Assembly: GCA_030390025.1 (NCBI GenBank) | Contig: JASTWF010000034.1 | Location: 3,038,001 to 3,102,000, forward strand | Source of the DNA: Squalus acanthias | Taxonomy: Eukaryota | Direction of reading: 5' to 3' | DNA length: 64,000 nucleotides | Notes under the pieces: model-generated | The model's input: the letters and a program-made list of their open reading frames with translations, nothing else | What the model was told of the DNA's origin: nothing | The model's database searches: none | Shown here: in pieces, positions 16,287-42,560 of the stretch | How positions within the stretch are numbered: the first letter of the stretch is position 1 | Layout of the letters: each line of letters opens with the position of its first letter | Program-made: the position numbers and the translations under genes

Positions 16287-17176
16287 TCATCCTTTAATGA
16301 ATTTTACAATCAGAGTAAAGGGATATTTCAACTGCTCTCTGAACTTAGTCTGGGTCACGGCATAAATCCCAGTGTTTGTGCAGCAACTCAGCAGCTGGAG
16401 CATGAATCCCAGTTCCAGTACATAACTAGGTAGAAGTACAGACCGATACCCCAACCACCACATGCGGTACCATATGGAATACAGCATAAACACTGCCCAT
16501 AACAGGCTGAAATTGCTGGAGATAACAAGCAGTAAAATGATGGATTTCCTGCGGCTCTCCATCTCTGGGTCTCTGTGACTCTCCCCATTGCTGGGACCCC
16601 GGAGTCTCCTGCGGGCTCTGCTGGCCACTAAAATGTGTCTGACGGTGACAGCATTGAGCAGCAGAATCACAACAAATGGGACACACGGGGTGAGAATATA
16701 ATGAAGGAACTCGATTGGTCCCCAGACCCGTGAATACAGAACATCCATTGTGACATCACAAAACCAGGGGCTGTTCGCAAGCCAATACCGATCTGTGAAC
16801 ATAAAATACCAGATGATGTTCTTTAAACCACTCAGCACAGTCACTGTACCCAAAACCACAGCCGCCATTTTCTCGGTGCAATATTTAGTTTTCAGCTTCT
16901 GGCAACAAATGGCCACAAATCGATCAAAGGTGAAAGTGACAGTGAACCAGACAGAACAGTCTGTGGCTGCGAACAGCAGGCCGGCGTGGATATTACACAC
17001 GCGGATAAACACCAGGAAGATAAACTGTCCCCAGTAAACAATCGGAATGTGCCTCAATATAAGGTCGAGGATAACGACCAGTAGATCCGCCGCTGCCATG
17101 GCCACCAGGTAGCGAGTCACACATTTGGAGAGACCACACTTTCCCCGAGACAGGATCCCAATCGTCACTAAGTTAA
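16287..17176 (-). CDS. Class A GPCR, GPR139/GPR142-like expansion family; main (7TM) coding exon
   Basis: Open frame NLVTIGILSRGKCGLSKC...YLVAMAAADLLV...FTFDRFVAIC...NTGIYAVTQTKFREQL; polypyrimidine + CAG acceptor (cttcccttccacacag) ending at 17177; needs a phase-1 upstream exon. Confidence 0.93.
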
Positions 17177-18489
17177 CTGTGTGGAAGGGAAGTAAACAGA
17201 AATTAAACATCAGGCTGGGAGCAAAAGCAGCAGTTTGATGGCATTCGGGCTGAAATCCGCAACTCATTATAGACATTCAATGATATAATCTAATTATTTT
17301 ACCTGTGGAGCTGAATAAAGTGTTTATTGTAAGTATAATCGGAAATACATTGTGGAATCAATAAATTAAATGGGAATAAATACAAGATAAAAGTAACAGA
17401 TGTTTGATCAAGGAGAGATTAAATGATCAATCTACCTTTAGCCCAGCAGACAAAAGCACCGCCCGAGGTACCAGGGGCACAAATGACCAGAACCTTTCAG
17501 GAAGCCTTCGTGTCCCGGGATCTGTCAGCATTTGGAGCGGTGCAAGTCGCTTCTGTGCCCCTGTGTTAGGGAGGGTTAAATCCCGATTGGATTCCTGCTC
17601 TTGGTTAGAATATCAATTATCTTTGAACTGAAAATGAATGCAGCAGCAAAATACAGAAACTGTAACCTTGGCATGCAATAATTAAAGGCAATTGTATGTA
17701 AAATGTACGTGTGTAATACGACAATGCTAAGATAATAAATACAAGTGCACTGCAGTTATAAATATAACTGGGCTATCAGATATGTTTTGAAGATTGAGTT
17801 TTCTGCATTTTTTTGAAATACACAAATTGTAGCTCATTGAAAGGAAGATTTGTCAAATAACACTGCAAATAATGGACTCTGAATTAAAGTAAATCGTGAT
17901 GATTGACCAGGTAATGTCCCACTAAATGCATTTATCAGTATCGAAATCAGACGACTTATCCCACAGGCAAAGTGCCATCGAATGCTTTTGCAAAATACCT
18001 GAACACAAATGGAAGAGAATTATCCTTTTACTTTTTCAACTGTTGTTTCCAACTTGTGCAGAGAATATTAGACGAGAAGATATCAAAGTATTTTCGTATC
18101 CTCAGTACTTCAGTTACAATCAGCTGGGGTTGTTTATCCTGAAGTACAGCAGGAATAGAGAATCACTATGGGTCTCACTGAGAGATCCACTGAAACGTGC
18201 CAGACGGTCATGGGATCCAATTGTGAATTCAAAACAATGATTGGAAATAAATGTATTGAACTCTGGCTGAATGATCATTTTATGAGTGTATAAATTATCC
18301 TTGTAATCCTACTTTTCCCTTCAGAAGCAGTGCTTACTAATGCAGAACTGTAGAGGTTGGGAAAGGAGACACTGACTGGAACTGAATGATTAGCAGATAT
18401 TTCAGTCAATTAAAGATGTGGATGTGATCTGCCAGGATTTCTTCCTGTGATTCTGTAAGTAACCATACCGAGCATTAGGTGAAAAGAAA

Positions 18490-18612
18490 CGCAAAATACT
18501 GCGGATACTGAAAATCTGAAATTAAAACATAAAATGGTGGAAATAATCAGCGGGTCAGGCAGCATCTGTGGAGAGAGAGAGAAACAGAGTTAACGTTTCA
18601 GGTCGATGACCT
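18490..18612 (-). mobile_element. Penelope-like terminal fragment (hammerhead truncated)
   Basis: Same sequence as arm 32322-32440; has stem II/GAAACGTTAAC but lacks the CTGA core. Confidence 0.75.
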
Positions 18613-19328
18613 TTGGCCATTAGGTGAAAAAAGTCTCCTAAACCAAGACAGCATTCTTCTGATCTGATACTAATGTTCAGTGTCGGTAGCAGACTGAAAT
18701 TCGTTAAACAAAGTGTCACCTCCAATAAATTTACTTAAGTTTAATATCGTCACATTTGCATCCTGGTAACACGATATCAGCTTCAGAATCAATAGCTGAC
18801 AGCACTGCGGATGTGATGGGGAAGGACAAAGAGAGAAACACGGTTAAACATGCGCGGTAAAGTCGGTTGGTTAGTGCCTCCCCTTAGCGACTTTGGGGCT
18901 GCTAATGAGACGCTAGATACTTAGATCCCGAGCGCAGCTATTTTAGCTCTGCTCGCGAAATTGGCCAGTTGTTTTGCAGCGGCGCTACAGACTACCGCCA
19001 AGATCTCCTGCGCCCGCAGATCGTGACATAATGCCAGCGTGCATCGCCCCGGCCCGGATATTGAGTTGCGTCCCCTGCCTTTCCGCCTGCCGTCGGAACG
19101 ACAGGTAGAGGGGAACGTTTTCAAGTCGGGAAGTGGCTGGGGGAGCGCTATTTAAAGGCGGCCGGTTCCTGCCTTTTCTTGTCGGCAAAATGTTTGGTAC
19201 ACGCAGGTTGAGAGGGCGAGAGACGTCTGCAGAGATTTGACGCTGACCGAAAGAATTTTGGTTCCTGAGAACCACTTTGGAGGCTCATATTTATTTCACC
19301 TTCCTTCTAACGATATTTAGAAGCTTCG

Positions 19329-20480
19329 ATGGGGCTGCGCTAACTCGGGGCGTCGTCGTCCAGCTTCACCTTCGGAGGGAGCAGACGTGCAGAGAGAGAG
19401 TGGCAAACGTGGCCAGAAGGAGGAGGGACATCAGGCCTCGGCACAGGAGACCTTCCCCTCTCAAGGCATTCAGCGAGTAATTCTCATCCTATATCCATTT
19501 GTCTGAGGAGCAGTGTTTTCAATGGCTGCGTTTCAGCAAGTAGGTGCTCACTGACCTCTGCCACCTCTTGCAACCAGATCTGCAGCTTCAGCTCAGGACC
19601 AGGACATCTCTGTCGGTGGCAGTAACGGTGACAGTGGCTCTGAATTTCTAAGTCAGCGGCTCCTTTCAGGCTTCTACTGTGGACATAGCGAATATCTCAC
19701 AGTTCGCTGTTTATTGTTGCATCCAGGAGGTGACAAAGGCTTTGTAGAAGAGGAGACGCCAGTACATCTCTCCTCATGGCACAGGACAAACAGCACAAAC
19801 GCGCATGTGGCTTTGCAAGGATAGTGGGCTTCCCCATGGTTCAGGGCACCATTGAATGCAAGCATATGGCATTTGGGACACCTCATGAAAATGCAGAGGT
19901 CTTCCAAAACCACAAGGGCTTCCACTCTCTGAATATCAAGTTGGTGTGTGACCACAGACAGCTCATACTCACCAGCAATGCCCGCTATCCTGGCCGCAGC
20001 CACAATGATTTATCCTGCGGCAGATCAGTGGCGCATACCTTTTCCAACCACCGCATCAACCTCGTGGATGTCTCCTCGGGGACAAGGGTTGTCCACTCTG
20101 CACCTGGCTGATGACACAGATCCATAACTCGAACACCCCTGCCTAGCTGCAATACAGTGAGAGCCGAAGCGCAACCAGGAACCTCATAGAGCAGACGATC
20201 GGGGTCTTGAAACAACGGTTCCGGTGTCTTGACCAGTCAGGGGGAGCCCTGCAGTTCTCTCCCGAGCGAGTCTCCCTCTTCATTGATGTGTGCTGCATGC
20301 TTCATATCATTGCAATCATGAGGACTCAGCCATTGCCACCAGGGATTGGTGCAACACCTGAGGAGGAGGAGGAAGAGAGAGAGGAGGACCAGCAGCACCA
20401 ACGAGGGAGGGAGGCGCACAATGTTGCCACTGAAAGGGCCGTCCGTGAATGGCTCATACGACACCGATTCTATTCCCTTA
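19329..20480 (+). pseudogene. Harbinger transposase pseudogene (H2)
   Basis: LSEEQCFQWLRFSK*, VALNF*VSGSFQA, GFPMVQGTIECKHM, NHKGFHSLNIKLVCD, GDKG, KQRFRCLDQSGGALQFSPERV, CCMLH; multiple stops and frameshifts. Confidence 0.9.
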
Positions 20481-20724
20481 CTGAGAAGATGGCTTCTGGG
20501 ATGAAAAAGCACATAATTGAAAGCATCCCGCACCCCCTATTGCCGGGCAAAGCTGCAATAAGTCAAATCAGGAAAGATGTAAAGTAACAATAAAAAAAAA
20601 GTTTATGTTACAAACTCTGTCATTTATGCAGGACAAACAATTAGAAACAAACCCATCAATTAATGAAGTAACTAAACTCGTTGTCACAACATGGAGATAA
20701 ACGGCAAAACTGTTAACAAATGTT

Positions 20725-21484
20725 GGGCCAGAAATTCGGCTTTCTGGCTTCCTGCGGTTGTAAGCATCGCACGGGTACTTGCCGACCACGCCTGCAGTTG
20801 TGCTTTGTGCCCACGACGACTTCGGGTCCTGGGCCTCCTGCAGCTGCCGGCGCGCAGTGCTTGCGTATCCCAGGGGCACAGTTAGTTCGAAGCGTCCCCT
20901 GGGATCACGTGGGCCAAGGCGAGCCAATCCTAGAAGGGCATTTTCATTCATAGATTTGACAAGACCTGTCAAATCTATGAATAGAGTTCGGCCCCAAAAC
21001 CACATTTAAACTTTAAATAAATTTTTAAAAAACATCACATTTTTAATATAACTATATGTTACATGAATTAACTACTTTAAACAAAAATGTAAATTTTTGA
21101 AATAATGTATTATACTTTTTAACGTTGCTAAAAATAAACTTACCTTTCTTTAAAGTATCTAAAAAAGCTAAACCTGTTGAAAAAATGTTTAAATTGTAGT
21201 TAATTTACCATTTACCTTGTTAAAAACGGGCCATGCGCCTCCTTTTTAAAAGTGCAGCTTTTCCATACCTACCCTCCCGGAGAAACCTGAAGAAAACCCC
21301 AAGGTTCGCTGCGTGTGCGCAGCCTCTGCCGCGCATGCGTTCGACTTCTGAACCCCTCCCTTCAGGGGAATGGAAGGTCCGGTTTCCCGCGCATGCGCAG
21401 TGCATGCAGGAAATCGCCACTTCAGGGGCCTGACGGGTGAGTACACAGCGCGTACTCACCCGACAAGAGCCGAATTTCTAACTC
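20725..21484 (-). mobile_element. Harbinger MITE (H1-related ends), nested in H2
   Basis: TIR GGGCCAGAAATTCGGC / degenerate GCCGAATTTCTAACTC; colinear with 24326-25080; no clean TSD. Confidence 0.85.
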
Positions 21485-21541: not shown

Positions 21542-23898
21542 CTACTTTTGGTCCTTCGAGGGTGACCTCCATCCCTTGCGCACTTCCCACCTTCCTACCT
21601 TACTGTTCCTCCTAATGTGGCCATAGTGGCTGCAGCAAGGCTGGTGGAAGGTTGCTGAATGCTGGATCCAGAGATTGCCTTGAAGGTCGCCTTCGACCAG
21701 CTCTGGGCCTGGAAGGCCGGCTGCAGACTGAACCAACGCTGCAAAGGCGGCAGCAGTCTGGGCTGGCTGTGTTGCAGGCCTTGCCAAGTGCAATGGGGAA
21801 GTGGCAGTGGTGGGAGCAGGAATGCTGCAATCCTGAGAGAGGACAGCACCTTCCTGCTCGACCATCACACTGCTACTCCCCCGGGGCAGAACCATAGCAT
21901 CCGGAGCAATCTGCTCGAGCAGAGATTGGTGGCCTGCTGCAGTACCTTGAGATCCCCGAGGGACTGTGGACGACCCAGCGAGGATGGCAGCAGTCGGCGC
22001 TTGAAAGACAACAATCTGAGACTGCATGAGAGCAGTCTGATACTGGATGGCACCAGCCAATGTCTCAATTGAAGCACTAAGACATTGCATTGCATCGGCC
22101 TGTGCTGCATTGAATCCTGCCTCCTCACACATTATACGCGACATGGGCTCTGGTTCCCCACAGTCTCCCTGCAGTATAAACATCCTCTGCAACGAGGCAA
22201 GGATGGGTTGAAGGGTTTTCACACAAATGAGAGCTGTGCTAATGGTGGACTCCACCACAAACATAGGCAGACCATCCATGCTGTCGGCCACCCTTGCTAT
22301 TGCACCTATCAGATCAGTGTGTATGCTCAATGCCTGTCTATTCATGGCCGCTGTATCGAGGTCCTCATCCGAGTCCTGTACAGCAGAACTCATGCACCTT
22401 CTCACCCACTGGGGAGATAGCTCCCGAGTTTCCCTATCCCCGTGACATTGCTGCAGCCCACTGGGTCCATGAGCTTCGCCCTCATCAGACCCTAACACGC
22501 TGCTCCCCTACAGGGAAGGAGTGGCACCAATGTCTGATGTGTCACCCTCGGGACACGCAGGCGGTGAGGCTCCGGCTTCCTCTTCCTCCTCGTCTGTCGC
22601 ATCGCTGCCACTGGCCGGCTGAGGGACAGGCTGGTCAGCTGGTGGTTCACCACCGGTCCACCTCCCTTGCATTGCTGCTCCCGTCTGTTATGACAGAGCT
22701 TGGACTGCAAGAAAAAGGACAGCGTGTGAGTGAGTTTACAGACATGTGTTTGGCAGATGTTCCTACCATAGTTAATTAGCCGTTATTGTGTGCAGCCATG
22801 TGTTTGGCAGATGTGTCTACCATAGTTGAATAGCCGTTACTGTGTGCAGCCATGCGTTTGGCAAATGTGCCTACTGACATGAATCATTTCATTCATGTGG
22901 AAATGACTTATGAAGTAATACTGGGCGGTCTGCTGGTGGCGCTGTCCAGAGAGAGTATAAATACACGGGCATGGGCCCAGCTTGCTCAGGACATTCCTTA
23001 ACAGGAACTAGGTAAGGCCACAACTAGATCTCCATGTTGAAAAACAGTTGATTGAAGCTTTGTTTAACGCTTAGACCAATTGCCTAGTAGTTTTCTTACG
23101 TCACCTACCACAGTTGAATTGCTGGTATTGTGTGCAGCCCTGTGTTTGGCAGATGTACCTACTACAACTGAATAGCTGTTATTGTGTGCAGCCCTGTGTT
23201 TGGCAGATGTGCCGACCATAGCTGAATAGACGTTATTGTGCGCAGCCATGTGTTTGGCAGATGCACCAACAGAGTTGAATAGCATTTACTGTGTGCAGCT
23301 ATGTGCTCATCAGATGTGCCTACCACAGTGGAATAGCCGTTATAGTGTGCAGCCACGTGTTTAGCAGATGTGCCTACCATAATTGAATAGATGTTATTGT
23401 GTGCAGACATGTGTTTGGCAGATGTGCCTACCATAGTTGAATAGCCGTTACGTTGTGCAGCCATGTGTTTAGCATATGTGCCTACCATAGTTGAATAACC
23501 GTTATTGTGTGCAGCCCTGTGTTTGGCAGATGTGTCTCCCGTAGTTGAATAGCCGTTTTTTGTGTGCAAGGTGTTATGCAGTGGCCATAGTTCTTGGATG
23601 AGTGTTGGGCATTTGGGTTTGTAAACCCTCTGCGCACAGAGTGAATTTAAGATGGAGGGTTGTAGAGGTAATGAAAAGCAGGTACTCACCCTGACCACCC
23701 GAAAAAGGTCGTTGAACTTCTTCTGACATTGGGTGTGGGTCCTCGGCACCAAGCTCCTTGTGGAGACGTACTGAGCCACCTCCCTCCACACCTGTCTAAC
23801 ATCCCTGGGCAATGGCGTCCTGCCACTCTCAGGGAACAGCACTGCCCATCGCCGTTCCACAGCGCCAACCAGAGCCACCAAAGCGCCCAGCTCATTCT
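21542..23898 (-). pseudogene. Harbinger Myb/SANT-like gene of H2 (5' truncated; exon ~23898-23690, next exon from 22704)
   Basis: ELGALVALVGAVERRWAVLFP...WREVAQYVSTRSLVPRTHTQCQKKFNDLFRVVR|GTGAGT; acceptor TTGCAG|SKLCHNRREQQCKGGG; low-complexity C-terminal ORF 21542-22498. Confidence 0.85.
22741..23567. repeat. 54-bp minisatellite in the H2 Myb intron
   Basis: Unit GCAGATGTGCCTACCATAGTTGAATAGCCGTTATTGTGTGCAGCCATGTGTTTG; 18-aa periodic ORF; interrupted by unique sequence ~22875-23100. Confidence 0.92.
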
Positions 23899-23946
23899 TT
23901 GAGCTTCTCCATTACTTAGAATTAATAACTTAACATAGATCATTAC

Positions 23947-24077: not shown

Positions 24078-24208
24078 GGCAGCGCGCTGACTGTGTGAGG
24101 TGACACAGTAAAGGGAGCTCCTTATTTAGAGCAGAGGGAAATAACCGAGTGACATCATTAGGCCTCACTGTAACAGGCATTAATTACAGTCTTTGAACAT
24201 ACAGACTC
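24078..24208 (-). promoter_or_regulatory. Putative promoter of exon A, paralogous to 42362-42495
   Basis: Shared blocks on + strand: GGAGG..GCGCT.ACT, GGAG..CCTTATT.A.AG.AGAGGGAAA, CATTAATTACAGTC. Confidence 0.6.
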
Positions 24209-24325
24209 ATTGAACCATTGTCACAACCAGACTTTACCGCGACACAATCTAGCTCACCTTATTGCACACAGTTTTAAATTAAAAGTGAGCTAGTACGCAA
24301 TATTTCAACCGGCCATAAACATAAT

Positions 24326-25080
24326 GGCCCAGAAATTCGCCTCTCCGGTTTACCGCGGGGGTAAGGATCGTGCGCACACTTACCTACCGCGTCTGCCGTT
24401 CTGCTTCTGGCCCGACGGGGACGTCAGCTCCTGGGCCTGCCCAACTGCCGGCGCACAGTGCTTGTGTGTCTCAGGGGCGTAGTTAGTGCGATGCGTCCCC
24501 TTGGATCACGTGGGCTATGGAGAGCCAATGGCAGCAGACCATCTTTCATTCATAGATTTGACAGGAAGACCTGTTAAATCTATGAATTGAAATCGGCCCC
24601 AAAACAACAGCTAAACTTCAAATAATTTTTTAAAAATCCATCACATTTTTAAATTAACTATAAGTTAAATAAATTAACTACTTTAAACAAAAATTTTTGA
24701 AAAACTTTAAATACTTTTTAATAGTGCTAAAAATAAACCTCCCTTTCTTTAATGTATCTAAAAAGATAAACCTGTTGAATGTTTTTAAAATTATAGTTAA
24801 TTAACCATTACCTTGCTGAAAACGGGTCTTGCACCTCCTTTTTAAAAGCGCAGGTTCTTCAATACTTACCCTCCCAGGGAAACCTGAAAAAAACCCTAGT
24901 TTGCTGCGTGTGCGCAGCCTCTACCGCGCACGCGGTTCACCTCTGAACCGCTCCCTTCACGAGACCGGAAGTTGCGGTTTCCCGCGAATCCGCAGTGCAT
25001 GCAGGAAACCGGCACTTCAGGAGGCCTGACGGGTGAGTAAACAGTGGGTACTCACCCGGCAAGTGCCGAATTTTTGGCCC
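24326..25080 (-). mobile_element. Harbinger MITE (755 bp) with AAT TSD
   Basis: TIRs GGCCCAGAAATTCG / CGAATTTTTGGCCC, AAT at 24323-24325 and 25081-25083; left end shares CCGCGGGGGTAAGGATC with the reverse complement of the H1 right end; right end matches the reverse complement of the H1 left end. Confidence 0.92.
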
Positions 25081-25114
25081 AATAATATTAAGAATTAGGA
25101 GCAGGAGTAGAAAT

Positions 25115-28100
25115 AGTAGGATATTTCAAATGAATACGTGGCTAGAGGAATGGTGCAAGGGGGAGGGATTCAAATTCCTTAGACATTGGAACCGGTTCTG
25201 GGGGAGGTGGGACCAGTACAAACGGGACGGTCTGCACCTGGGCAGGACCGGAACCGATGTCCTAGGGGGAGTGTTTGCTAGTGCTGTTGGGGAGGGTTTA
25301 AACTAAAGTGGCAGTGGATTGGGAACCTGAGCAGGGAGACAGAGGAAATGGAAACAAGGATAAAAGCAAAAGACAGGCAGGAGAAAAACAAAAGTAGAAG
25401 GCAAAGAACTCAACGGTTTAAATCAAACATGGTCACAGTAAATAATAATTCATATAGGTCTGAGAGCGTTAAAAAAACAAGCCTGAAGGCTTTGTGTCTT
25501 AATGCAAGGAGCATTCGGAACAATGTGGATGAATTAGCTGCGCAAATTAAGGTAAATGAATACGATTTGACTGGGATTACAGAAACATGGCTCCAGGGTG
25601 GCCAAGGCAGGGAACTCTACATCCAGGGGTATTCAATATTTAGGAAAGAGAGGCAAAAAAGAAAGGGAGGTGGGGTAGCATTGCTGGTTAAAGAGGGGAT
25701 TAACACAATTGAAAGGAAGGATATTAGCTCTGATGATGCGGAATCTGTATGGGTAGAACTGAGAAATAACAAGGGGCAGAAAACGTTACTGGAAGTGGTA
25801 TATAGACCAAACAGTAATACGGAGGTTGGGGATGGCATTAAAAGGGGAATTAGAGAAGCATGCAGTAAGGGCATAGCAGTCATCATGGGTGACTTGAATT
25901 TACATAGAAATTGGGCTAACCAAATTAGTAAAAATACTGTGGAGGAGGAATTCCAAGAATGTTTACGGGATGGTTTTCTGGAACAATATGTCGAGGAACC
26001 AACCAGAGATCAGGCCATCTTAGATTGGGTATTATGTAACGAGAAAGGATTAATTAGCAATCTTGTTGTACGAGGCCACTTGGGTCAGAGTGATCATAAT
26101 ATGATAGAATTCTTCATTAGGATGGAGTGTGAAGTAGTTGAATCAGAGACTGGGTCCTGAATTTAAATAAAGGAAACTACGATGGGATGAGGCGCGAATT
26201 GGGTAGGATTGATTGGAGAATGTCACTCAAAGGGTTGACGGTGGATAGGCAATGGCAAACATTCGAAGACTGCATGGATGAACTACATCATTTGTTCATC
26301 CCAGTGTGGCATAAGAATAAAACAAAAAGGGTGACTCAACCGTGGCTAACAAGGGAAATTTGGGATAGCATAAGATCCAAGGAGAGGGCATATAAATTGG
26401 CCAGGAAAAGCGGCAACCCTGAGGATTGGGAGCAGTTTAGGATTCAGCAAAGGAGGACAAAGGGATTAATTAAGAAGGGGAAAATAGAATATGAAAGTAA
26501 GCCTTCAGCGAACATAAAAACTGACTGTAAGAGTTTTTATAGATATGTGAAGAGAAAAAGATTAGTGAAATCAAGTGTAGGTCCCTTGCAGTCAGAAACG
26601 GGGGAAGGGATAATGGGGAACAAAGAAATGTCAGACCAAATAAATGCATATTTTGGTTCTGTCTTCACAAAGGAGGACACAAATAACCTCCCAGAGATGT
26701 TGGAGAACATACGGTCTGCTGAAAGGGAGGAACTGAAAGAAATCAGCATTTGCAGGGAAATGGTGTTAGGGAAATTGACGGGATTGAAGGCCGATAAATC
26801 CCCAGGGCCTGATAATCTACATTCAAGGGTACTTTAGGAAGTGGCCCTAGAAATAGTAGATGCATTGCTGATCATCGTCCAACATTCGATGGAATCTGGA
26901 ACTGTACCCATGGATTGGAGGGTAGCTAATGTTACCCCACTATTCAAAAAGGATGGTGGAGAGAAAGCGGGGAATTACAGACCGGTAAGCCTGACATCGG
27001 TAGTGGGGAAAAAGCTAGAGTCCGTTATAAAGGATGTAATAGCTGAGCACTTGAAAAACAGTGACAGGATCGGACAAAGTCAACATGGATTTACAAATGG
27101 TAAATTGTGCTTGATTAATCTACTGGAAATTTTTGAGGATGGAACTGGAAAAATAGATAAGGGAGAACCAGTAGATGTGGTGTATTTGGACTTTCAAAAG
27201 GCTTTCGATAAGGTCCCGCATAAGAGATTAGCGTGTAAAGTTAAGGCACATGGGATTGGGGGCAAGGTATTGACTTGGATAGAAAACTGGTTGGCGGACA
27301 GAAAGCAAAGAGTAGGAATTAATGGGTCTCTTTCCGAGTGGCAAGCAGTGACTAAAGGGGTACCGCAGGATCAGTCCTTGGACCCCAGCTATTCACAATA
27401 TACTTTAATGATCTAGATAAGGGAACTAAATGTAATATCTCCAAGTTTGCAGATGACACAAAGCTGGGTAGGAGTGTGTGCTGCGAGGAGGATACCGAGA
27501 AACTCCAGGATGATTTGGACAGGTTGGGTGAGTGGGCAGAAGCGTGGCAGATGTAATATAACGTGGATAAATGCGAGGTTATCCACTTTGGTGTCAAAAA
27601 CAGGAAGGCAATAGATTGGGAGAAGGGGAAGTGCAACGACACCTGGGTGTCCTTGTGCACCAGTCGCTGAAGTTAAGCATGCAGGTGCAGCAGGCGGTGA
27701 AGAAGGCAAATGGTATGTTGGCCTTCATAGCGAAAGGTTTTTAGTATAGAAACAGGGATGTCCTGCTGCAGTTGTACAGGGCCTTGGTGAGACCACACCT
27801 TGAGTATTGTGTGCAGTTTTGGTCGCCTTATCTGAGGAAGAATGTTCTTGCCATGGAGGGAGTTCAGCGAAGATTCACAAGGCTGATACCTGGGATGGCA
27901 GAAATGACATATGAGGAGAGATTGGGGCGATTGGGCCTATACTCGCAGGAGTATAGAAGAATGAGAGGGGATCTCATCGAAACATATAAAATTCTGACAG
28001 GTCTGGACAAACTAGATGCAGGAAGAATGTTCCCGATGCTCTTAGAGTCCATAACCAGGGGTCATAATCTAAGGATAAGAGGTAAGCCATTTAGGACAGA

Positions 28101-29055: not shown

Positions 29056-29059
29056 AAAA

Positions 29060-32414: not shown

Positions 32415-32450
32415 AGTTAACGTTTCAGGTCTTGACCCTTCGTCAGAACT
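32415..32450 (-). ncRNA. Minimal hammerhead ribozyme motif
   Basis: Minus strand AGTT-CTGACGA-A-GGGTCAAGACCT-GAA-ACGT-T-AACT. Confidence 0.75.
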
Positions 32451-32964
32451 GGAAAACGTTTGAGATGTAACAGGTTTTAAGCAGGTGTAGGGGCAAGGAA
32501 AGGGGGTAGGGGAAGAAATAATAAAATGTACAATCTTTGATAGGGTGGGAGGCTGGAGTTGGTAAATGTTGCAAATGGGAATTGCAGAATCATCAAAAGC
32601 TGCTACCTGAAAAAATACGGGCGGGGTTATGTACTGAAATTGTTGAACTGAGTGTTGAGTCCAGAAGGCTGTAAAGTGCCGAATAAAAAGATGAGGTGTT
32701 GTTCCTCGAGCTTACGTTGTAAGAGGCCGAGGACAGAGAGGTCAGAGTGGGATTGGAGCGCTTGTCACTTTAATTCTCCGATCCAACTCCCACTTTGACT
32801 GCAGCTCAGGCGGCAGCTGTTGATGGTTCTGCCATCCCGATTTGCAACATTTAACTACTCCTGCCTTCCACCCTATCACAGACCGTCCCTTTTATTATTT
32901 CTGCCCCTCCCCCTTTCCATGCCCCTGCACCTGCTTACAATCAGTTTAATCAGTAACTTTTTCC

Positions 32965-33001
32965 AGTTCTGACGAAGGGTCAGAGACTTGAAACGTTAAC
33001 T
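32965..33001 (+). ncRNA. Minimal hammerhead ribozyme motif
   Basis: AGTT-CTGACGA-A-GGGTCAGAGACTT-GAA-ACGT-T-AACT; stem I AGTT/AACT, palindromic ACGT stem III. Confidence 0.72.
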
Positions 33002-33094
33002 CTGTTTCTCTCTCCACGGATGCTGCCTGACCCGCTGAGTGTTTCCAGCATTTTCTGTTTCTATCTTAGGCAATCTTATATTCTCTCTTAGTCT

Positions 33095-33800
33095 GATTCC
33101 TCCTAGCCCTCCATCACCATTCCAGGGTCTGCACAGACCCACCAGAGGTGGGGGCACAGGGGTATACAATCGGGAGGGAGAAACCCTGCGAGTCCTCAAC
33201 ATTGCCTATGCATATAATGAAGTCTCACGGCTTCCAGTCAGACATGGGCAAGGTAACTTGCTGCTGATTACCACCTACCGCCCTCCCTCAGCTGATGAAT
33301 CGGCACATTTCATGCTGAACAGCAGTTGATGGGAGCACCGAGAGCAGAAAGGGCACAAATTATACTCTGGGTCCCAAGTGGGAAACTTCAATGTCCATCA
33401 CCAAGAGTGGCTCGGAAGTACCATCATTATCCGAGCGCTGAAGAACACAGCTGCCGGACTCGGATTGCGGCAGGTGGTGAGAGAACCAAGATGGGAGAAC
33501 CAAGATCATCGACCTGAAACGTTAACTCTCTTTCTCTCTCCACGGATGCTGCCTGGCCGGCTGAGTTTTTCCAGCGTTTTCTGTTGTTATTTCGGATTTC
33601 CAGCATCCGCAGTATTTTGCTATCGTGAGAGAATAGCCTGCTTGACCTCGACCTCACCAACCTACTTATCGCATATGCATCTGTCTATATTGGTAGGACT
33701 AACCACTGGACAATATTTGTAGAGAATAAGTCTCGCCGTCACCCTGAGGACACCGTCCATCGTATCATGTGCCTCTAACATGGTGCCCATTGGGATGAAA
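33095..33800 (+). mobile_element. Old LINE endonuclease-domain fragment
   Basis: RGGGTGVY, LLITTYRPPS, GNFNVHHQEWLGS, LRQVVREP; interrupted by a Penelope fragment. Confidence 0.75.
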
Positions 33801-33959
33801 TTAGACAGAGTCAAGCGATCCCACAACCAACAGATCAGACTATTTCAAAGCTGTCATATTCTGTCGTGAATGGTAATGAACATTTAAACAGTTTCCACAT
33901 ACCCCTGAAAATTTCTCCTTTTCAAGTATATGTCCAATTATCTTTTGGAAGTTACAGTT

Positions 33960-35012
33960 AAGAAAGAAAGAATTACATTGATATAGCGCTTTTCACAACC
34001 CTGGGATGTACCAAAGCGCTTTACAGCCAATGAAGTACTTTTGAAGTGTAGTCACTGTTGAAATGTATGAAACGAGACAGCCAATTTGCGCACAGCAAGC
34101 TCACACAAACAGCATTGTGATAATGACCAGATAATCTGCTTTAGTGATGCTGATTGAGATAAATATTGGCCAGAACACCGGGGTTAACTCTGCTGCTCTT
34201 CATCGATATAATTCAATGGCATTTTTACGTCAACCTTAGAAAATGGAAGGAGCCTCGTTTTAACGTCTCATCCAAAAGACGGCCTCTCCGACAGTGCAGT
34301 GCTCCCGCTGTACTGCCCCTCTGACAGTGCAGTAACCCCTCAGTACTGCCCCTCTGACATTGCAGTGCTCCCTCTGTACTTCCCCTCTGACAGTGCAGTA
34401 CTCCCTCAGAATTGCCCCTCTGACAGTGCAGTACTCCCTCAGAACTGCCCCTCTGACAGTGCAGTACTCCGTCAGTGCAGCCCCACTGAAATTGCTCTGC
34501 TCCCTCAGTACTGCCCCACTGACAGTGCAGTGCTCCCTCAGTACTGCACCTCTGACAGTGCAGTAACCCCTCAGTACTGCCCCTCTGACATTGCAGTGCT
34601 CCCTCTGTACTTCCCCTCTGACAGTGCAGTACTCCCTCAGAACTGCCCCTCTGACAGTGCAGTACTCCCTCAGAACTGCCCCTCTGACAGTGCAGTACTC
34701 CGTCAGTGCAGCCCCACTGAAATTGCTCTGCTCCCTCTGTAGTGCCCCTCTGACAGTGCAGTACTCCCTCAGTACTGCCCCTCTTACAGTGCAGTGCTCC
34801 CTCAGTACTGCACCTCTGACAGTGCAGCGATCCTTCTGTACTGACCCTCTGGCAGTACAGCGATCCCTCAGTACTGTCCCTCCAACACTGCAGCGCTTCC
34901 TCAGTACTGCACTGGAGCTTTAGCCTAGATTTTTGTACTCAAGTCGCTGGATTAGGACTTGAACCCACAACCTTCTAACATAGAGCTGAGAGTGCTGTGA
35001 CTTGAGCCTACT
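33960..35012 (-). mobile_element. DeuSINE (SacSINE1-like) with internal minisatellite expansion
   Basis: Reverse complement of the 28586 SINE: tail at 33960, Deu-like core ~34160-34240, tRNA head 34920-35012. Confidence 0.85.
34290..34915. repeat. 33-bp minisatellite amplified inside the SINE
   Basis: Unit GACAGTGCAGTACTCCCTCAGTACTGCCCCTCT; 7-unit (231-bp) block duplicated, visible as the doubled peptide in ORF 34299-34742. Confidence 0.93.
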
Positions 35013-35744
35013 GAATCTGCTTTGACCAGACTTTCGGAGTTCATTCTCGATCATAAAAAACTCACTGTGTGACCAAGGTTCTTCTCCTCTGCCCCCTGTT
35101 TCTTTAACCAATTATCTTATATCTGTGCCCTTTTGGTAATGACAAGGCAAGGATTGGAAACACTTTCTCCTTTCTTAATGTATCAAAACCCCTCACCATT
35201 CTGAGCACTTCTATTCTAATCCCCTGCACTTGACAGTCAACAGCATTTCCATCACCGAATCCTCCAACATCAAAATCCTAAGGGTTCGCCATTAATCAGA
35301 AACTCAACTGGACCAGACACATAAATGCCGTGGCTACTACAGCAGGTCAGAGGCTGGGTGTTCTGCGGAGAGTAACTCACCTCTTAACTCAAGAAAACAT
35401 CTCCAACACCTACAAGGCACTAATCAAGAGTGTTAGGGATTACTATCTGTAGACAGAGGGATGACATGTGGGCAAGACCCTACTAATTGTAATAAATTTA
35501 TTAAACATTTCTCAATGTTAAGGACATGTATAAATATTAAAATTAAATGTCTGCCAAATAAGCAGGTTCTATGGTTTCATATTCAGGAGAAGATTAGAAT
35601 CTTTGAACGAACATTAATGAACTAATAATCTGTAAGGACAGATATGAGGGCCGAGAATATCCGATCGGAATTTGCGACCCGATAACGGCTGCTTTATGCC
35701 AACGCCCGAGAGCAATTTCTAGGCCGTTTTGTTTGCAGCGTTTT

Positions 35745-36632
35745 GTCTCTTTAAACAGCCCGTGTGACTGGTCCTGTTTCTTTAAATAGCCCGTGTGACT
35801 GGTCCTGTCTCTTTAAAAAGCCTCTGTGACTGATCCTGTCTCTTTAAATAGCCTGTGTGTCTGGTCCTGTCTCTTTAAAAAGCCTCTGTGACTGATCCTT
35901 TCCCTTTAAAAAGCCTGTGTGACTGATCCTTTTTCTTTAAAAAGCCTGTGTGACTCATCCTTTCTCTTTAAAAAGCCTGTGTGACTGGTCCTGTCACTTT
36001 AAAAAGCCTGTGTGACTGATTCTGTCTCTTTAAAAAGCCTGTGTGATTGGTCCTGTCTCAGTAAAAAGCCTGTGTGACTGGTCCTTTCTCTTTAAAAAGC
36101 CTGTGTGACTGATCCTTTCTCTTTAAAAAGCCTGTGTGACTGGTCCTGTCTCTTTAAAAAGCCTGTGTGACTGGTCCTGTCTCTTTAAAAAGCCTGTGTG
36201 ACTGGTCCTGTCTCTTTAAAAAGCCAGTGTGACTGGTCCTGTCTCTTTAAAAAGCCTGTGTGACTGGTCCTGTCTCTTTAAAAGCCAGTGTGACTGGTCC
36301 TGTCTCTTTAAAAAGCCTGTGTGACTGGTCCTTTCTCTTTAAAAAGCCTGTGTGACTGGTCCTGTTTCTTTACAAAGCCTGTGTGACTGGTCCTGTCTCT
36401 TTAAAAAGCCTGTGTGACTCGTCCTGTCTCTTTAAAAAGCCTGTGTGACTGGTTCTGTCTCTTTAAAAAGCCTGTGTGACTGGTCCTGTCTCTTTAAAAA
36501 GCCTGTGTGACTGGTCCTTTCTCTTTAAAAAGCCTGTGTGACTGGTCTTGTCTCAGTAAAAAGCCTGTGTGACTGGTCCTTTCTCTTTAAAATGCCTGTG
36601 TGACTGGTCCTGCCTCTTTAAAAAGCCTGTGT
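35745..36632. repeat. 31-bp minisatellite
   Basis: Unit CTCTTTAAAAAGCCTGTGTGACTGGTCCTGT, about 28 copies. Confidence 0.95.
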
Positions 36633-36838
36633 GCTAGTTTCAGTGTCACTGACTGTGGCTCCGCCCTCTTGTTTAGGTTTTCATTGCATGTTAAACAATT
36701 AAGAGCCAGAATGGAGGTTTTTTTTTGAACAGGGGACCATGGATTTTGGGACCACAGGGGTATTGCTGGTGCAGGATTACTGAGACTCGTTCTTTGACAC
36801 TGTAGTGACTTCACTGAGTTACGGAGAAATGAAGCCCT

Positions 36839-36955
36839 AGGCCTGGAAATCCGTCATTGACGGCAGTGGAGGTGAATATCAGCAGCGTCGTGTAACGGGC
36901 GCCCGATCCGATACAGCCCGATTAGCACCACCGCCCAAGACGAATTTCTCGGCCC
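36839..36955. mobile_element. Mini-MITE with Harbinger-like ends
   Basis: AGGCCTGGAAATCCGTC ... GACGAATTTCTCGGCCC imperfect 17-bp inverted repeat, CpG-rich interior; no clean TSD. Confidence 0.55.
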
Positions 36956-37136
36956 TTGTCTGTAGATAACGGCCGATATTAAATGTCACAGCGTGCTGTC
37001 GAATTGGACTAAGACTTTTCCTCTCAAAGACTCGGCTTGAATCCACTGAGAGTCATTTGTTATCTTCCGAGACAGATTGCTCGAGGGGTGGGGAGATGTA
37101 AGATCTAATTATAAAATTAATTACAAGCATTTCTGT

Positions 37137-37282
37137 CTCATCCAAAACTCTGCTGCCTGTGTCCTAACTCGCACCAAGTCCCGCTCCCCCGTCACCCCCG
37201 GACGACCCCCTTTGCGCTCGCTGACCGACATTGTCTCCCGGTCCGGCAATGCCTCGATTTTAAAATGTTCATCCTCGTGTTC
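37137..37282 (+). mobile_element. L2-like LINE 3' fragment
   Basis: LIQNSAACVLTRTKSRSPVTP; same family on minus strand at 41345-41815. Confidence 0.7.
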
Positions 37283-38049
37283 AGCCCAAACTCATTGCCA
37301 AGTGTCCAGTAAGGATTTGCATCCCGAAAATGCAAAACGTTAGTTTGTTTATATTTAGTATTTTACCGTAAGTACGTTTCATCCCCAGGGCCACAGGTGG
37401 ATTTCTAAAATTGGCATCAAGGGGACAAGAGGCACAGGGAAGGGGCTAGAATTCGGCTCAGACTGCAGAAGACCAAAATGTGCACAGTACTCCAGGTGTG
37501 TACATTAGTGAACCAGGTAGGTTTTTACAACAATCCGAACGTTTCATGGTCACCATTCCTGATCCTAGCTTTTCATTCCAGATTTGTTTAATTAATTGAA
37601 TTTAAATTCCCCAGCTGGTGGGAATTGAACTCTGGATCATTTGTCCAGGCATCTGGTTTACTAGTCCAGCAACATAACCACTATGCTTATTAACCCTTCA
37701 AATATATCGCTGTTCTTTCATCGTCACTCGGTCAAAAGCCTGAAATTCCTCCATAACAGTATTGTGGGAGCACCTTCACCACAGGGACTGCAGTGGCTCA
37801 AGTTGAAGGTTCACCATCTTCTCACGGGTGACTAGGGATATGCAGGAATACTGGCCATGACACCATGACCCATATCCTGAGAACAAACGATAGAAATAAT
37901 ATAATTAATGATTTTGTAATTCACTGATTGAAACCAGGCGAGACCTGAGATCAGAGCAGGGCGTTATGCTCCGCTGAACAAATTGTCTCACAATTTGGAT
38001 CACCAATTCAATGATTCTTTGATTGCTACTGCCCAAACTTTCCCAATCT

Positions 38050-38710
38050 CCCTATATTTTAAAATATGCTTGGTAAAGTAACACATAATACCAAAATTGA
38101 AGCCCATGGGATTAAAGTGGCAGTGGTAACATGGCTCGGAAATTGGCTAAGAAACAGAAGACAGCGAGTAGTGATAAACGGTTGTTTTTGATACTCAATA
38201 TACTGTGGTGTACCCCAGGAGTCGGTGTTGGGACCATTGTTCATTTCTTGTATATCAATGCCATGGACTTGGCTATACAGTTAGTAATTTGAAAGATTGA
38301 GATGACAGGAAACTCTGAAATGTTAATAAACAGTGAGAATGGCAGTAACAGACCTCAGGAGGACATGGACAGACTGGTGAAATGGGCAGACACATGGCAG
38401 ATACAAGTTAATGTAGAGAAGGGTGAAGTGATACATGTTGGTAGGAAGCATGAGCAGAGTCCTTGGCTTTACAAACAGAGACAAAGAGTAACAAAATCGA
38501 GGTAGAAATGCTAATTTTAAAAAATAATTGGTTAGACCCCAGATGGAGTATTGTGTCCAATTCTGAGCGCCACACTTTGGCAAGCATGTCAAGGATGAGA
38601 GAAGGTGTGGAAGAGATTTATCGGAATGGCAGCAGGGATCTGGGACTTCAGTCACGTGGAGAGTCAGGAGAAGCGGGGATTGTTCATTTTAGAGCAGCGA
38701 AGATTAAGAT
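38050..38710 (+). mobile_element. Degraded CR1 RT fragment
   Basis: GVPQESVLGPL, QEDMDRLVKWADTWQ, EYCVQF; continues at ~40920-41138 with 3' tail. Confidence 0.8.
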
Positions 38711-38721
38711 TCACAGAATTG

Positions 38722-40920
38722 TAGAATCATAGAAATTTACGGCACAGAAGGAGGCCATTTGGCCCATTGTGTCTGCGCGGTCGAAATAGAGCTATCCAGC
38801 CTAATCCCACTTTCTAGCTCTTGGTCCTTAGCCCTGTAGGTTACAGCACTTCAAGTGCATATCCAAGTACGTTTTAAACGTGATGAGGGTTTCTGCCTCT
38901 ACCACACTTTCAGGCCTTGAGTTCCAGACCCCCACCGCCCTCTGGGTGTAAACATTTTTCCCCATCTCCCCTCTAATCCTTCTACCAATTAATTTAAATC
39001 TATGCCCCCGGTTATTGACCTCCCTGTCAGGGCAAATAGTTCCTCCTTATCCACTCTATCTAGGCCTCTCATAATTTTATACACCTGAATTAAATCTTCC
39101 AAGCCTTTTCTGTTCAAAGTAAACAACCCCAGGCTATCCAATCTTTCCTCATAGCTAAAATTCTCCAGTCCTGGAAACATCCACGTAAATCTCCTCTATA
39201 ATGTCTCGCGTGCAATCACATCTTTCCTGTAATGTGGTGACCAGAACTTTACACTGTATTCTAGCTGTGGCCTAACTATTGTCTTATACAGTCCTAGCAT
39301 AACCTCCCTGCTTTTATATTCTGTGCCTTGGCTAATAAAGCAACGTATCCCACATGCCTTCTTAACCACCCTATCTATATGTCCTGATATTTCTAGAGAT
39401 ATGTGGAAATGTACTCCAAGGTCCCTCTGTTCCTCTACAATTCTCAGCATCTTACCATTTATTGTGTATTTACCCTTTTGTTTTTAGCCCACCAGAAATC
39501 CATTACCTCACACTTCTCCGAATGTAAGTCCATTTACCACTATTCTGACCACCTGATCAGTCTATTGTTGTCTTCCTGCTGTCTACAGCTATCTTCCTCA
39601 CTATCAACCACACAGCCGATTTTAGTATCATCAGCAAACTTCTTCATCATGTCCGCAACATTGATGTCTAAATCATTGATATATGCCACAAAAAGCAGGG
39701 GACCTCGTACTGAGCCCTGTGGAACCCCACTGGAAACAGCCTTCCAGTCACAAAAACACCCATCAACCATTACCCTTTCCTTCCTGCCATTGAAATAATT
39801 TTGGATCCAACTTGCCGCTTTTCCTTGGATCCCATGACCAACCTGTCATGTGGGACCTTCTCAAAGACTTTGCTAATATCTATGTGAACTACATCAAATG
39901 CAGTACCTTCATCGACCCTCCTCGTTACATCCTCAACAAAATCAATCAGGTTAGTCAGACACGACATTCCCTTAACATTACCATGCTGACTGTCCTTGAT
40001 TAATCTGTGCCTTTATAAATGCCGATATATACTGCCCTCAGAATTTTTCCAATACTTTTTTCACCACCAATGTTAGACTGACTGGCATGTAATTACTCGG
40101 CCTATCCTCTTCTCCCTTTTTGTAAAATGGTACAACGTTAGCAGCCCTCAAGTCCTCTGGCACCATTCCTGTAGCCAGAAAGGATTGGAAAATTTTTGTC
40201 TGAGCCACAGCTATTTCCTCCCTTGCCTCTCGTAACATCCTGGGATACATTTCATCCGGGCCTCGTGATTTATCTACTTTCAAAGATGCTAAACCCCTTA
40301 ATGTTTCTTCTCTCACTATGTTTATCTCATTTTATATTTCACACTCCTCCTCCTCAACTACAATGTCTGCAACGTCTAACTCTTCTGTGAAGACAGACAC
40401 AAAGTATGTATTAAGAAACATATCCACGTCTTCCACCTCTACACACAGGATAACTTTTTGGTCTTTAATAGGCCATACTCTTTCCTTAGTTGTTCTCTTG
40501 CTCTTGATGTTTGGGTTTGCCTTGATATTACTTGCCAATATTTTTTCATGCCCTCTCTTTGCTTTCCTAATTTCCTTTTTAATTTCACCCCTGCACTTTC
40601 TATACCCCTCTAGGCTTTCTGTAGCATTGAGTTCGCAGTATCTGACACGCTTCCCTTTTTGTTCGCTTATCCTACCTTGTATACCTCTTGACATCCAGGG
40701 GGCTCTAGATTTGGGAGAAGCAACCTTTTTCTTTGTGGGATTATATTTGCTCTGAGGCCTCACTATCTCCTCGTTAAATGCTTCCCACTGCTCCGACACT
40801 GATTTCCCATCAAGTAGCTGTTTCTAGTCCACTTTTGCAAAATCACATCTCAGAAAAATAAAACTGGCCTTTCCCCAATTGAAAACTTTTCAACCTGCTT
40901 TATCTTTGTCATTTTCTATT
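38722..40920 (-). mobile_element. CR1-type LINE, 5' truncated, disrupted
   Basis: GVPQGSVRGPLLF, KFADDTKIG, RPQLEYSVKFW; tail TAGAATCATAGAA at 38722. Confidence 0.92.
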
Positions 40921-41344
40921 AGGGGAGATTTTATTGTGATCTGGAATGCACTGACTGAGAACGTGGTGGAAGCAAAATTAATTGAAACTTTCGAAAGGGA
41001 ATTGGATAATTAGATGCCATTTTTTACAGGGCTCTGATTAAAGAGTAGGACAAAATTGATAACTCTTTCAAAGAGACGGCACAGACACGTTGGGCCGAAT
41101 GCCCTCCGTCGGTGCTGTACCGTTCTATGATTCTATGAGCAAGAGACAGAGAGAGAGAGAAGAGGGGGAGATAGAGAAAGGGAGAAAGAGTGAAATAAAA
41201 ATAGAGACTGAAAAACAGGGAGAGGTACCGAAGGAAAGAAATTAACTTTACAAGGGGAATTGAATAAATACCTGAAGGGGAACAATTTGCAGGACTAAGG
41301 GAACAAAGCAGGGGAATGGGAGCAATTGCAGTGGTGAGGCCTTG

Positions 41345-41815
41345 GTAGAATTTGAAAATGAGAATGAGAATATTAAAATCGAGGTGTTCTCGGATCGGGA
41401 GCCAATGTAGGTAAGTGATCACAGGGGTGATGGGTGAATGGGACATGATGCGATTTAAGATGCGGGCAGCAGAGTTTTGGATGAGCTCTAATTTATGGAG
41501 TCTTGTAACTGGGAGGCCGGCTAGGGGAGCATTGGAATAGTCGAGTCTGGATTTAACAAAGGCACGGATGAGGATTTATGCAGCGAAAGGGTTGAGGTGA
41601 AGCGGAGATTGGTGACATTTTGGAGGTGGTAGTAGGCAGGACTGGTGATTCAGAAGATATGAGTTCAGAACTCAGCTCAGGGACAAAGAGATCATCGGGG
41701 TTGCGAACAGTCTGGTTCTGCCTCAGACATTGGCAAGGGAGGGGGATTGAGTCAGGAGATAGAGAACGGAGTTTGTGACGAAGACCGAAGACAATGGCTT
41801 TGCTCCTTCCAAGAT
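41345..41815 (-). mobile_element. L2-like LINE fragment
   Basis: SHSPITPVITYLHWLPIREHLDFNILIL. Confidence 0.75.
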
Positions 41816-41819
41816 ATAA

Positions 41820-42100
41820 ATGACAAAAACAGCAATACAGTGCTGGATATGGAGACTTACCAGGGACACCAACAGCAGCAAAGAAGAGAGAGTAAATTAC
41901 AAGAACAGTAATACAGTTAGCAAAGGTTTGCAGAGTTAATAGCTGGATACAGAGACTTAACTGGAACAACAACCGCAACAAGGAGCGAAGAGTGAATGAC
42001 AAGAATAGTAATGCAGCTTTACATGGTTTATCGAATTAATAGCTGGATAGAGAGACTTACCAGGAACACCAACAGCAGCAAGGAGGGGATAGTAAATGTA
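41820..42100 (-). repeat. Three ~100-bp tandem copies of the GPCR exon-1 end and splice donor
   Basis: GTTGGTGTTCCTG|GTAAGTCTC (42061/42060), GTTGTTGTTCCAG|TTAAGTCTC (~41960, donor dead), GTTGGTGTCCCTG|GTAAGTCTC (41861/41860). Confidence 0.85.
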
Positions 42101-42283
42101 TTGAATAATCTTAAGTGCGTAATAGATCCGATATTCTAATTGTATTTCATCATAATATTCTGAAAGGAAGTCAAACACCGAGGACAAAGTCCTCTCCATT
42201 GTTGTAATATTCCAATCTACTGTTCTCAGATTCCGACCCATTGTTGTAACATTCCAATCTACTCTTCTCAGATTCCGACCCAT
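42061..42283 (-). CDS. GPCR candidate first exon B (distal)
   Basis: MGRNLRRVDWNVTTMGRNLRTVDWNITTMERTL...IQYIYYPLLAAVGVP + G, consensus donor CTG|GTAAGT; 223 nt, phase 1, joins exon 16287-17176 as ...VGVPVNLVTI... (370 aa; 24.9-kb intron). Confidence 0.82.
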
Positions 42284-42361
42284 TGTTGTAACATTCCAAT
42301 CTACTGTTCTCAGATTCCGACTCCTTCTCTGTGGAGCAGCGCGCTGATCCCTGTCAGTGCC

Positions 42362-42560
42362 GGAGGTGATGCGCTCACTGACACTATGGGATAACACATT
42401 GAAAGGAGTCCCTTATTAATAGAAGAGGGAAACCCTGCACTGATACAATAAGGTCAATTGAGACTGACATTAATTACAGTCACTAAACAAACAGCTTCAG
42501 TTAACCCGTGGAGACTGACATTAATTAAAGTCACTGAACAAAGAGTTTCAGTTAACCCCT
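42362..42560 (-). promoter_or_regulatory. Putative promoter of exon B
   Basis: TATA-like TATTAATAA (minus, ~42413-42421) about 130 bp upstream of the ATG; 48-bp duplication containing CATTAATTA (42460-42507, 42511-42558); homologous to 24078-24208. Confidence 0.6.

Follow-up and report, generated by a model that had tools for sequence, protein, structure and literature searches.

A shark GPR139-like receptor locus with one 7TM exon and two first exons, of which one is decayed

Introduction

GPR139 has a two-exon layout, split in TM1, and birth-and-death multigene clusters are a setting in which pseudo-exon relics are left behind. In UGT1, GCNT2 and clustered protocadherin, paralogous first exons lie in tandem upstream of a shared coding sequence; among the variable exons of such clusters, some are pseudogenes or relics, as described in parts of PMC1885805 and PMC3325998.

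The 'probable GPR139' family is expanded in sharks (2554 matching clusters), with RefSeq or UniRef labels from Heterodontus, Heptranchias, Pristiophorus, Scyliorhinus, Stegostoma and skates. Family models consist of one first exon and one 7TM part, and in many of them the break between the N-terminal and 7TM parts falls at the same position in TM1. Among solved structures, human GPR139 (PDB 7VUG and 9M42) is the best match of family member P0007, with E 3.8e-11 over all seven helices. However, the human receptor is a distant paralog (46 bits), and its Trp/Phe ligand and single-copy orthology are not transferable; this score of only 46 bits and the number of family clusters argue against a one-to-one GPR139 ortholog. 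Cartilaginous fishes were described as relatively GPCR-poor in a part of PMC8455134, and the shark expansion is undescribed in the literature covered, which included parts of PMC8455134, PMC6504862, PMC12208981 and PMC11979771 and lay outside subscription papers and supplements, where family counts may stand.

A locus of this family in Squalus acanthias has the tandem arrangement of first exons, and its preliminary description proposed either a protocadherin/UGT1-like design or a tandem gene pair that had lost one 7TM exon.

Results and discussion

Anatomy of the locus

In the window, i.e. the whole stretch of 64 kb that was analysed, we found one 7TM exon and two upstream phase-1 first exons, A and B, all on the minus strand. 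As had been described, the 7TM exon (17176-16287) begins in mid-TM1 in phase 1 and needs a phase-1 partner; it runs from the second half of TM1 to the C-terminus, stop codon included. Its Pfam 7tm_1 domain (E 1.2e-15) and its 72-80% identity to shark 'probable GPR139' proteins place it among the shark GPR139-like class A GPCRs. The acceptor is strong, with 18 of 22 pyrimidines followed by CAG; acceptor and non-repeat intron flank (17177..18370, minus strand) are common to paralogs in related sharks, and the flank is matched by contigs of all four runs aligned (X1, X5, X14 and X15) at 80% likeness or more.

Both first exons would splice in frame with the 7TM exon, with computed open frames of 326 aa (A-7TM) and 370 aa (B-7TM), and both end in the family's YYP...GVP start of TM1. 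The N-termini had been given as 30 and 74 aa; these figures hold as exon lengths but not as extracellular lengths, because the last 11 or so residues of each first exon belong to TM1, leaving tails of about 20 and 64 aa. A first-exon HMM of the family detected exon B (54 bits), exon A (16 bits) and nothing else in the window, including the 21 kb upstream of B. In 7TM identity, break position and N-terminal repeat the locus is like the rest of the family; it differs in having two first-exon cassettes on one 7TM exon.

Exon B and the 7TM exon are intact

Exon B (42283-42061, minus strand, 223 nt, 74 aa) is family-typical and intact. None of its residues is unseen among family first exons, and its PSSM score is 58.9 bits, the homolog median being 49.2. 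It is of the long type carried by 79 of the 88 classifiable homologs among the best 120; the other 32 models have no recognisable first exon and were left out, and first-exon class was assigned by regular expression, with some models, e.g. P0009, misclassed. A 42-bp repeat in three copies is present in exon B, whose tail consists of the 14-aa repeats also found in 55 of these 88 homologs, here carrying two N-glycosylation sequons. The donor, CTG/GTAAGT, matches the U1 consensus at eight of nine positions. The end of the exon and its donor are tandemly duplicated (41842..42098, minus strand, 100 bp x 2.6); a spare consensus donor at 41861 sits past an in-frame stop, the exon B frame ending at 41960.

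The 7TM exon is equally free of decay: only two of its 295 residues are unseen in homologs (homolog median 3), and it departs at two conserved columns, against a homolog median of 5. On the other hand, it is without four residues present near the C-terminus of homologs and carries S instead of I at a column conserved in 109 of 119. Together with the duplicated B donor region and the 32 homolog models mentioned above, these features could mean that neither first exon serves the 7TM exon efficiently, B being an orphan or the locus a young pseudogene. We consider this improbable in view of the few departures at conserved columns and of the score of exon B, which lies above the median homolog beside a decayed exon A and so implies selection on B.

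Exon A is decayed

Exon A (24037-23947, minus strand, 91 nt, 30 aa) is of the short type and is decayed in both protein and donor. C(-18), K(-15), N(-13), H(-8) and I(-6) each occur in none of the 106 family first exons compared, 18 of which are short like exon A; 33 of the 139 homologs were left out of the first-exon comparisons, and the rows P0036 (out of register) and P0071 (long branch) were also left out. Over 25 residues, a count of unseen residues as high as that of exon A is reached by 2 of the 106 annotated homologs; in the last 16 residues exon A has four and no homolog more than two, and its PSSM score there, 18.8 bits, is under all 87 leave-one-out scores. No sequon is present.

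Few splice donors are without both -1G and +5G. The preliminary description was right in calling donor A weak and donor B consensus: donor A, CTA/GTAATG, matches U1 at five of nine positions and has lost both of these G residues, and no in-frame alternative scoring at least 6 was found between 23700 and 24037. In part of PMC1934990, positions +5 and -1 are described as each important separately. The first 45 nt of intron A (23902..23946, minus strand) are homologous to intron B, and this homology ends at the beginning of a start-less Myb frame.

The regions upstream of both exons are also homologous. Block A (24087..24216, minus strand), with a TATA-like word and a TAATTA motif, is 68% identical to block B (42378..42557, minus strand), which has a 51-bp internal duplication. 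In the alignment, 92 of 135 nt are identical (E 6e-16), and the local score of 46 compares with 18 for the best background among 844 window tiles. Homologous promoters had been claimed here; the homology holds, and the blocks are putative promoters by their position and the TATA-like word.

No second 7TM exon between the cassettes

A six-frame search of the window with the family 7TM HMM gave a single match, of 557 bits, any other score being 1 bit at most. With 139 homologs as tblastn queries, the best off-target hit had E 0.013 and lay on the opposite strand. Neither tblastn, blastn nor HMM revealed a degraded 7TM exon between the cassettes, where the preliminary description had found no second one. 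The interval (25095..41575) is filled with CR1/L2 LINEs, SINE-like repeats and minisatellites, and its HMM search gave no 7TM remnant. Repeats cover 85% of 24217-41840; the largest uncovered piece is 432 bp, therefore no gap fits an 890-bp 7TM exon.

Taken with the decay of exon A, this anatomy fits the tandem pair of the preliminary description: the locus is probably a tandem GPR139-like gene pair in which one 7TM exon was lost and exon A decayed, B-7TM being the one working receptor. Two two-exon genes of a birth-and-death family (B1-B2 and A1-A2) would have stood on the same strand, and a deletion inside the transposon-filled interval, suggested by the absence of a second 7TM exon, would have removed one 7TM exon and left two promoter/first-exon cassettes over the other. 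Given the strand and the order B, A, 7TM, one deletion suffices. Cassette A would then have decayed, acquiring a weak donor and polar residues in and before TM1, with its intron ending abruptly at a truncated Harbinger element. Transcription from promoter B and splicing from 42061 to 17176 over a 24.9-kb intron would yield a 370-aa receptor whose repeat tail is glycosylated; a surviving 7TM exon from A would make the working gene a B1-A2 chimera. A remnant of the lost exon or a deletion breakpoint was not found in the window, and exon A retains its ATG, an open in-frame CDS and GT, which counts against a relic of a tandem pair.

Like known pseudo-exon relics, cassette A is a partial gene copy, decayed at conserved sites and bounded by transposons; unlike them, it lies inside the intron of what is probably a working paralog and has kept its frame. 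As one of its first exons is visibly decayed, the locus is most likely commonplace debris from a large family of duplicated genes; a receptor with a switchable head is the less likely reading.

A 7TM exon could also have been lost in assembly, if the paralog cluster, rich in repeats, had been collapsed or misjoined, as 85% repeats between the cassettes, a 9.7-kb satellite within the window and thousands of paralogs might suggest. But the window is without N gaps, the decay of A is independent of assembly, and the A-Myb junction joins non-homologous sequences and not a repeat pair; an artefact thus seems hardly probable.

Harbinger sequences around exon A

Harbinger sequence lies on both sides of exon A. 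A broken Harbinger (PIF) transposase gene (19500..20584, plus strand), with DDE_Tnp_4 matches in two frames and a 56% DNA match to a Harbinger at 9.7-14.2 kb, is followed by one copy of a Harbinger-type MITE (20725..21477), which has a TIR and is an 82% direct repeat of 24325-25073. The second copy (24326..25079), with an AAT target duplication, lies upstream of block A at a distance of about 110 bp. Between the two, a Harbinger Myb/SANT gene remnant (21545..23887, minus strand) is 5'-truncated at the intron of exon A; its Myb_DNA-bind matches (E 1e-4 and 9e-4) are under the Pfam cut-offs, and its frame has no start codon after the upstream stop. A contig of run X5 matches the remnant at 23598-23875, its last 100 letters failing to align.

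Cassette A (about 0.4 kb) could thus be a fragment brought into the intron of gene B by Harbinger (Pack-type capture) or by a repair insertion, B-7TM being original and no 7TM exon having been lost here. Indeed, A replaces the 5' end of the element's Myb gene, a 12-bp inverted repeat (24230..24241 and 18853-18864) would enclose transposase, Myb and A, and most classifiable homologs have long, B-type first exons. The inverted repeats may be Harbinger ends or a chance pair. They are short (local E 0.021) and not flanked by a clean 3-bp target duplication, the right arm also aligns loosely with the upstream block of B, and an X14 contig aligns through the left arm from 18810; capture therefore seems rather unlikely to us.

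Of the 304 contig joints and 5470 loose ends of the four runs on 16200-24320, 15 and 24 respectively were listed, and none of those listed falls at 17176 or 23947. This alignment, at 80% likeness, was swamped by repeats, and exon B is outside its range. Contigs of X1 and X5 cover intron sequence too, therefore they do not show transcripts.

Variability lies largely in the 7TM exon

True alternative promoters, with A and B both spliced to the shared 7TM exon, would give two N-termini, one short and unglycosylated, the other long and glycosylated, as in a miniature UGT1 or protocadherin cluster. The two exons are in frame, have an ATG and homologous upstream blocks, and differ in sequons. The N-terminal segment is also one of the family's variable segments: in 121 close pairs, exon 1 shows 0.24 differences per site, ECL1, ECL2 and TM6-top/ECL3 show 0.22-0.29, and the remainder 0.01-0.11. 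However, three of these four hypervariable segments are in the 7TM exon, which is therefore not 'constant'. At least two intact first exons under selection characterise UGT1 and protocadherin clusters, with diversity in the variable exon and an invariant constant part; here the window has only two cassettes, one with five unseen residues and a 5/9 donor, and ECL1-3 vary like exon 1. Such clusters also keep their organisation in related species. All six pairs with at least 95% 7TM identity share their first exon at 23 or more of 25 positions, none providing an annotated relative in which a single 7TM exon has two first exons of the family, a weak test on protein clusters, as 90% clustering can hide isoforms. 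We thus did not retain the protocadherin/UGT1-like design, and alternative promoters appear very improbable.

As a single locus, a relic first exon within a paralog's intron is of little weight. Such relics will nevertheless look like alternative promoters and lead to wrong gene models in the GPR139-like family. The better lead is the family itself, with thousands of shark GPR139-like receptors whose variability is concentrated on the extracellular face.

Possible re-pairing of first exons and 7TM exons

Judged by similarity, the evidence on whether A or B was the original partner of the 7TM exon appears split. The best 7TM match, P0003 (1284, the next being 1234), has a short first exon, and the window 7TM exon shares an unstarred clade with P0052, the best exon match of A. 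None of the trees places the 7TM exon in a starred clade; one of these is a quick tree only, and the 31-row tree used 30 of the 139 homologs, picked by nearness. Conversely, there is a correlation of 7TM similarity with likeness to B (rho 0.24-0.27, p 0.013-0.005) but none with likeness to A (rho -0.06), in a reference set picked by similarity to the 7TM exon or to P0068, which may miss the subfamily of exon A.

The TM1 intron might be a recombination hinge at which deletions or unequal crossing-over between transposons of the intron give first-exon cassettes new 7TM partners. The locus would have been caught mid-way, with B on the 7TM exon of A and A possibly giving a minor short-tail isoform. 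We hold this possible but doubtful; should such re-pairing prove common, the receptors of cartilaginous fishes would have a further, combinatorial source of diversity. Hints of it come from first-exon type, which switches between short and long at least four times on the 31-row tree, and from a shared exon: P0046 and P0119 of Heterodontus have the same first exon of 58 aa, with 7TM parts only 85% identical, the median for such pairs being 29/46, and they are the only pair of 70 with first exons identical at 46/46.

Organization of the locus

The window, which contains no N gaps, carries on its minus strand one rhodopsin-family 7TM exon (17176-16287, 890 nt; Pfam 7tm_1, E 1.2e-15) that starts in mid-TM1, directly after a strong acceptor. 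Two phase-1 first exons lie upstream of it, A (24037-23947, minus strand) and B (42283-42061, minus strand), and either of them completes the frame, to give 326 aa with A and 370 aa with B. The promoter-like blocks upstream of the two exons align over 92/135 nt (E 6e-16), with a score of 46 as compared to a background best of 18 for 844 window tiles. When the six frames of the window were searched with a family HMM, we observed a single match, the rest being at or below 1 bit, and no second 7TM exon; a first-exon HMM matched only B (54 bits) and A (16 bits). The donors of A and B agree with the U1 consensus at 5/9 and 8/9 positions, respectively. The anatomy given in the preliminary description, including the weak donor of A and the consensus donor of B, is thus confirmed.

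The best-conserved part of both blocks is a TAATTA-containing word (24170-24190; 42460-42558, duplicated in B), which we take to resemble a homeodomain site. An out-of-frame ATG, in a weaker context than the main one, is present at 42294, 11 nt upstream of the B start and within a 42-bp repeat. Just downstream of the stop codon of the 7TM exon is a 27-bp GC-rich minisatellite (15276-15867 and 16133-16233), whose unit includes a word presumably resembling a YY1 site.

An expanded receptor family

A homology search with the 7TM exon gave 2554 clusters, of which the best 120 are shark proteins, mostly 72-80% identical to the exon; 119 of them are labelled 'probable G-protein coupled receptor 139'. 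Among solved structures the nearest is human GPR139, yet it is so distant (E 3.8e-11) that the locus belongs to an expanded paralog family and is not the GPR139 ortholog. In the best 120 homologs, the first exon is long and B-like in 79, short in nine and not recognisable in 32; a search directed at short-type first exons added 19 proteins. Exon A is of the short type (17/25 residues identical to the homolog P0068).

In 121 close family pairs, per-site differences reach 0.22-0.29 in ECL1, ECL2 and TM6-top/ECL3 and 0.24 in exon 1, and 0.01-0.11 elsewhere. Such variability, concentrated in the N-terminus, ECL1, ECL2 and TM6/ECL3 of thousands of shark GPR139-like clusters, would be expected of a ligand-diversifying receptor repertoire. 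Our literature searches found no paper describing this expansion.

Exon A is decayed, exon B and the 7TM exon are not

We compared the last 25 residues in register with 106 family first exons. Every residue of B is found in the family at its position, and five of A are not: Cys(-18), Lys(-15), Asn(-13), His(-8) and Ile(-6); five or more such unseen residues also occur in 2/106 homologs. If only the last 16 residues are counted, four of A are unseen and no homolog exceeds two. His(-8) and Ile(-6) fall within TM1, at columns that are hydrophobic and nearly always Ala in the family. In the PSSM, A scores 18.8 bits, less than any of the 87 leave-one-out values (minimum 20.8, median 49.2), and B scores 58.9 bits. 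The donor of A lacks both -1G and +5G, a joint loss especially damaging to a donor, and no in-frame alternative donor was found near A. Positions +5 and -1 are among those most often hit in human disease alleles (PMC1934990).

The 7TM exon lacks four C-terminal residues; it has two unseen residues in 295 (homolog median 3) and is not decayed. An intact B and an intact 7TM exon beside a decayed A would point to selection on the B-to-7TM combination. Exon A is very probably non-functional, when its readings as a relic, as a captured fragment and as part of a dead locus are summed. The locus could work like a two-promoter gene at a low level; true use of both A and B is very improbable.

Comparison with variable-first-exon loci

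The first option of the preliminary description was a protocadherin/UGT1-like design. In those loci, which are conserved across vertebrates, variable first exons stand in tandem upstream of the constant exons, and the recognition diversity resides in the variable part (PMC1885805). In contrast, the shark locus has just two cassettes, one of them decayed, and in its family the ECL segments of the 7TM exon vary as strongly as exon 1: whole genes diversify, 7TM exon included. In 6/6 pairs with at least 95% 7TM identity the first exon is common to both members, a weak test as 90% clustering can hide isoforms. The variable-first-exon design is therefore not supported.

Transposon surroundings

The homology of A and B stops about 45 nt into the intron, where a start-less Myb-like frame (weak Pfam matches) begins; its partner, a Harbinger transposase at 19.5-20.6 kb, is broken. 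A contig from another organism tracks this Harbinger/Myb element up to 23875 and then diverges. On the other side, a MITE with an AAT duplication lies 110 bp upstream of block A, followed by CR1. Repeats cover 85% of the interval between the cassettes, the largest uncovered piece being 432 bp. Exon A is thus a 0.4-kb island among transposons. A CR1 also bounds B upstream, so that transposon bounding alone does not discriminate.

Another Harbinger element (9692-14233) has both ends, AAT flanks, an open 365-aa transposase frame (10521-11615) and, convergent to it, the remnant of a Myb-type gene. The reverse transcriptase frame of a CR1-type LINE (44242-46590) is open over 783 aa. Broken LTR-retroelement-like frames lie at 48.5-53.2 kb (minus) and 60.5-64 kb (plus), with RNase H by Pfam (E 5.7e-11) and gag-, protease-, RT- and integrase-like parts by eye only. 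A 52-bp satellite occupies 4-9690 (about 190 copies, interrupted at 2364-3126), and minisatellites of 31 bp (x29, 35744-36633), 33 bp (x19, 34282-34910) and 54 bp (x9, 23104-23568) were also observed.

Origin of the order B, A, 7TM

In a tandem pair on one strand, a single deletion taking the 7TM exon of B would give the order B, A, 7TM, and the surviving gene would be a chimera. The loss of one 7TM exon from a tandem pair, the second option of the preliminary description, is supported by the decayed A, the intact B and 7TM exon and the absence of a second 7TM exon. Insertion of an A fragment into the intron of B would give the same order; a 12-bp inverted repeat at 18853 and 24230 hints at it faintly, but comes with no target duplication.

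Evidence on the original partner of the 7TM exon is split between A and B. In favour of A, P0003, whose 7TM part matches best (1284 versus 1234 for the next), carries a short exon, and P0052, the best match of exon A, falls with the window 7TM and five long-type genes in one clade (94/85). In favour of B, 11/12 top 7TM matches carry long-type exons, and B-likeness rises with 7TM similarity (rho 0.24-0.27; rows not independent); A-likeness shows no such correlation. The window sequence lies within no starred clade of the tree.

Possible exon re-pairing in relatives

Two Heterodontus homologs, P0046 and P0119, on contigs unequal in size, have identical 58-aa first exons and 7TM parts 85% identical, the converse of the A/B locus; P0019 and P0102 are similar (46/46, 90%). 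Exon re-pairing or conversion is possible for P0046/P0119. On the tree, at least four changes of first-exon type are seen, although both such switches and shared-exon discordance can also arise from automatic gene prediction and the choice of start codon. Re-pairing of exons across the TM1 intron of the family may be proposed as a testable idea.
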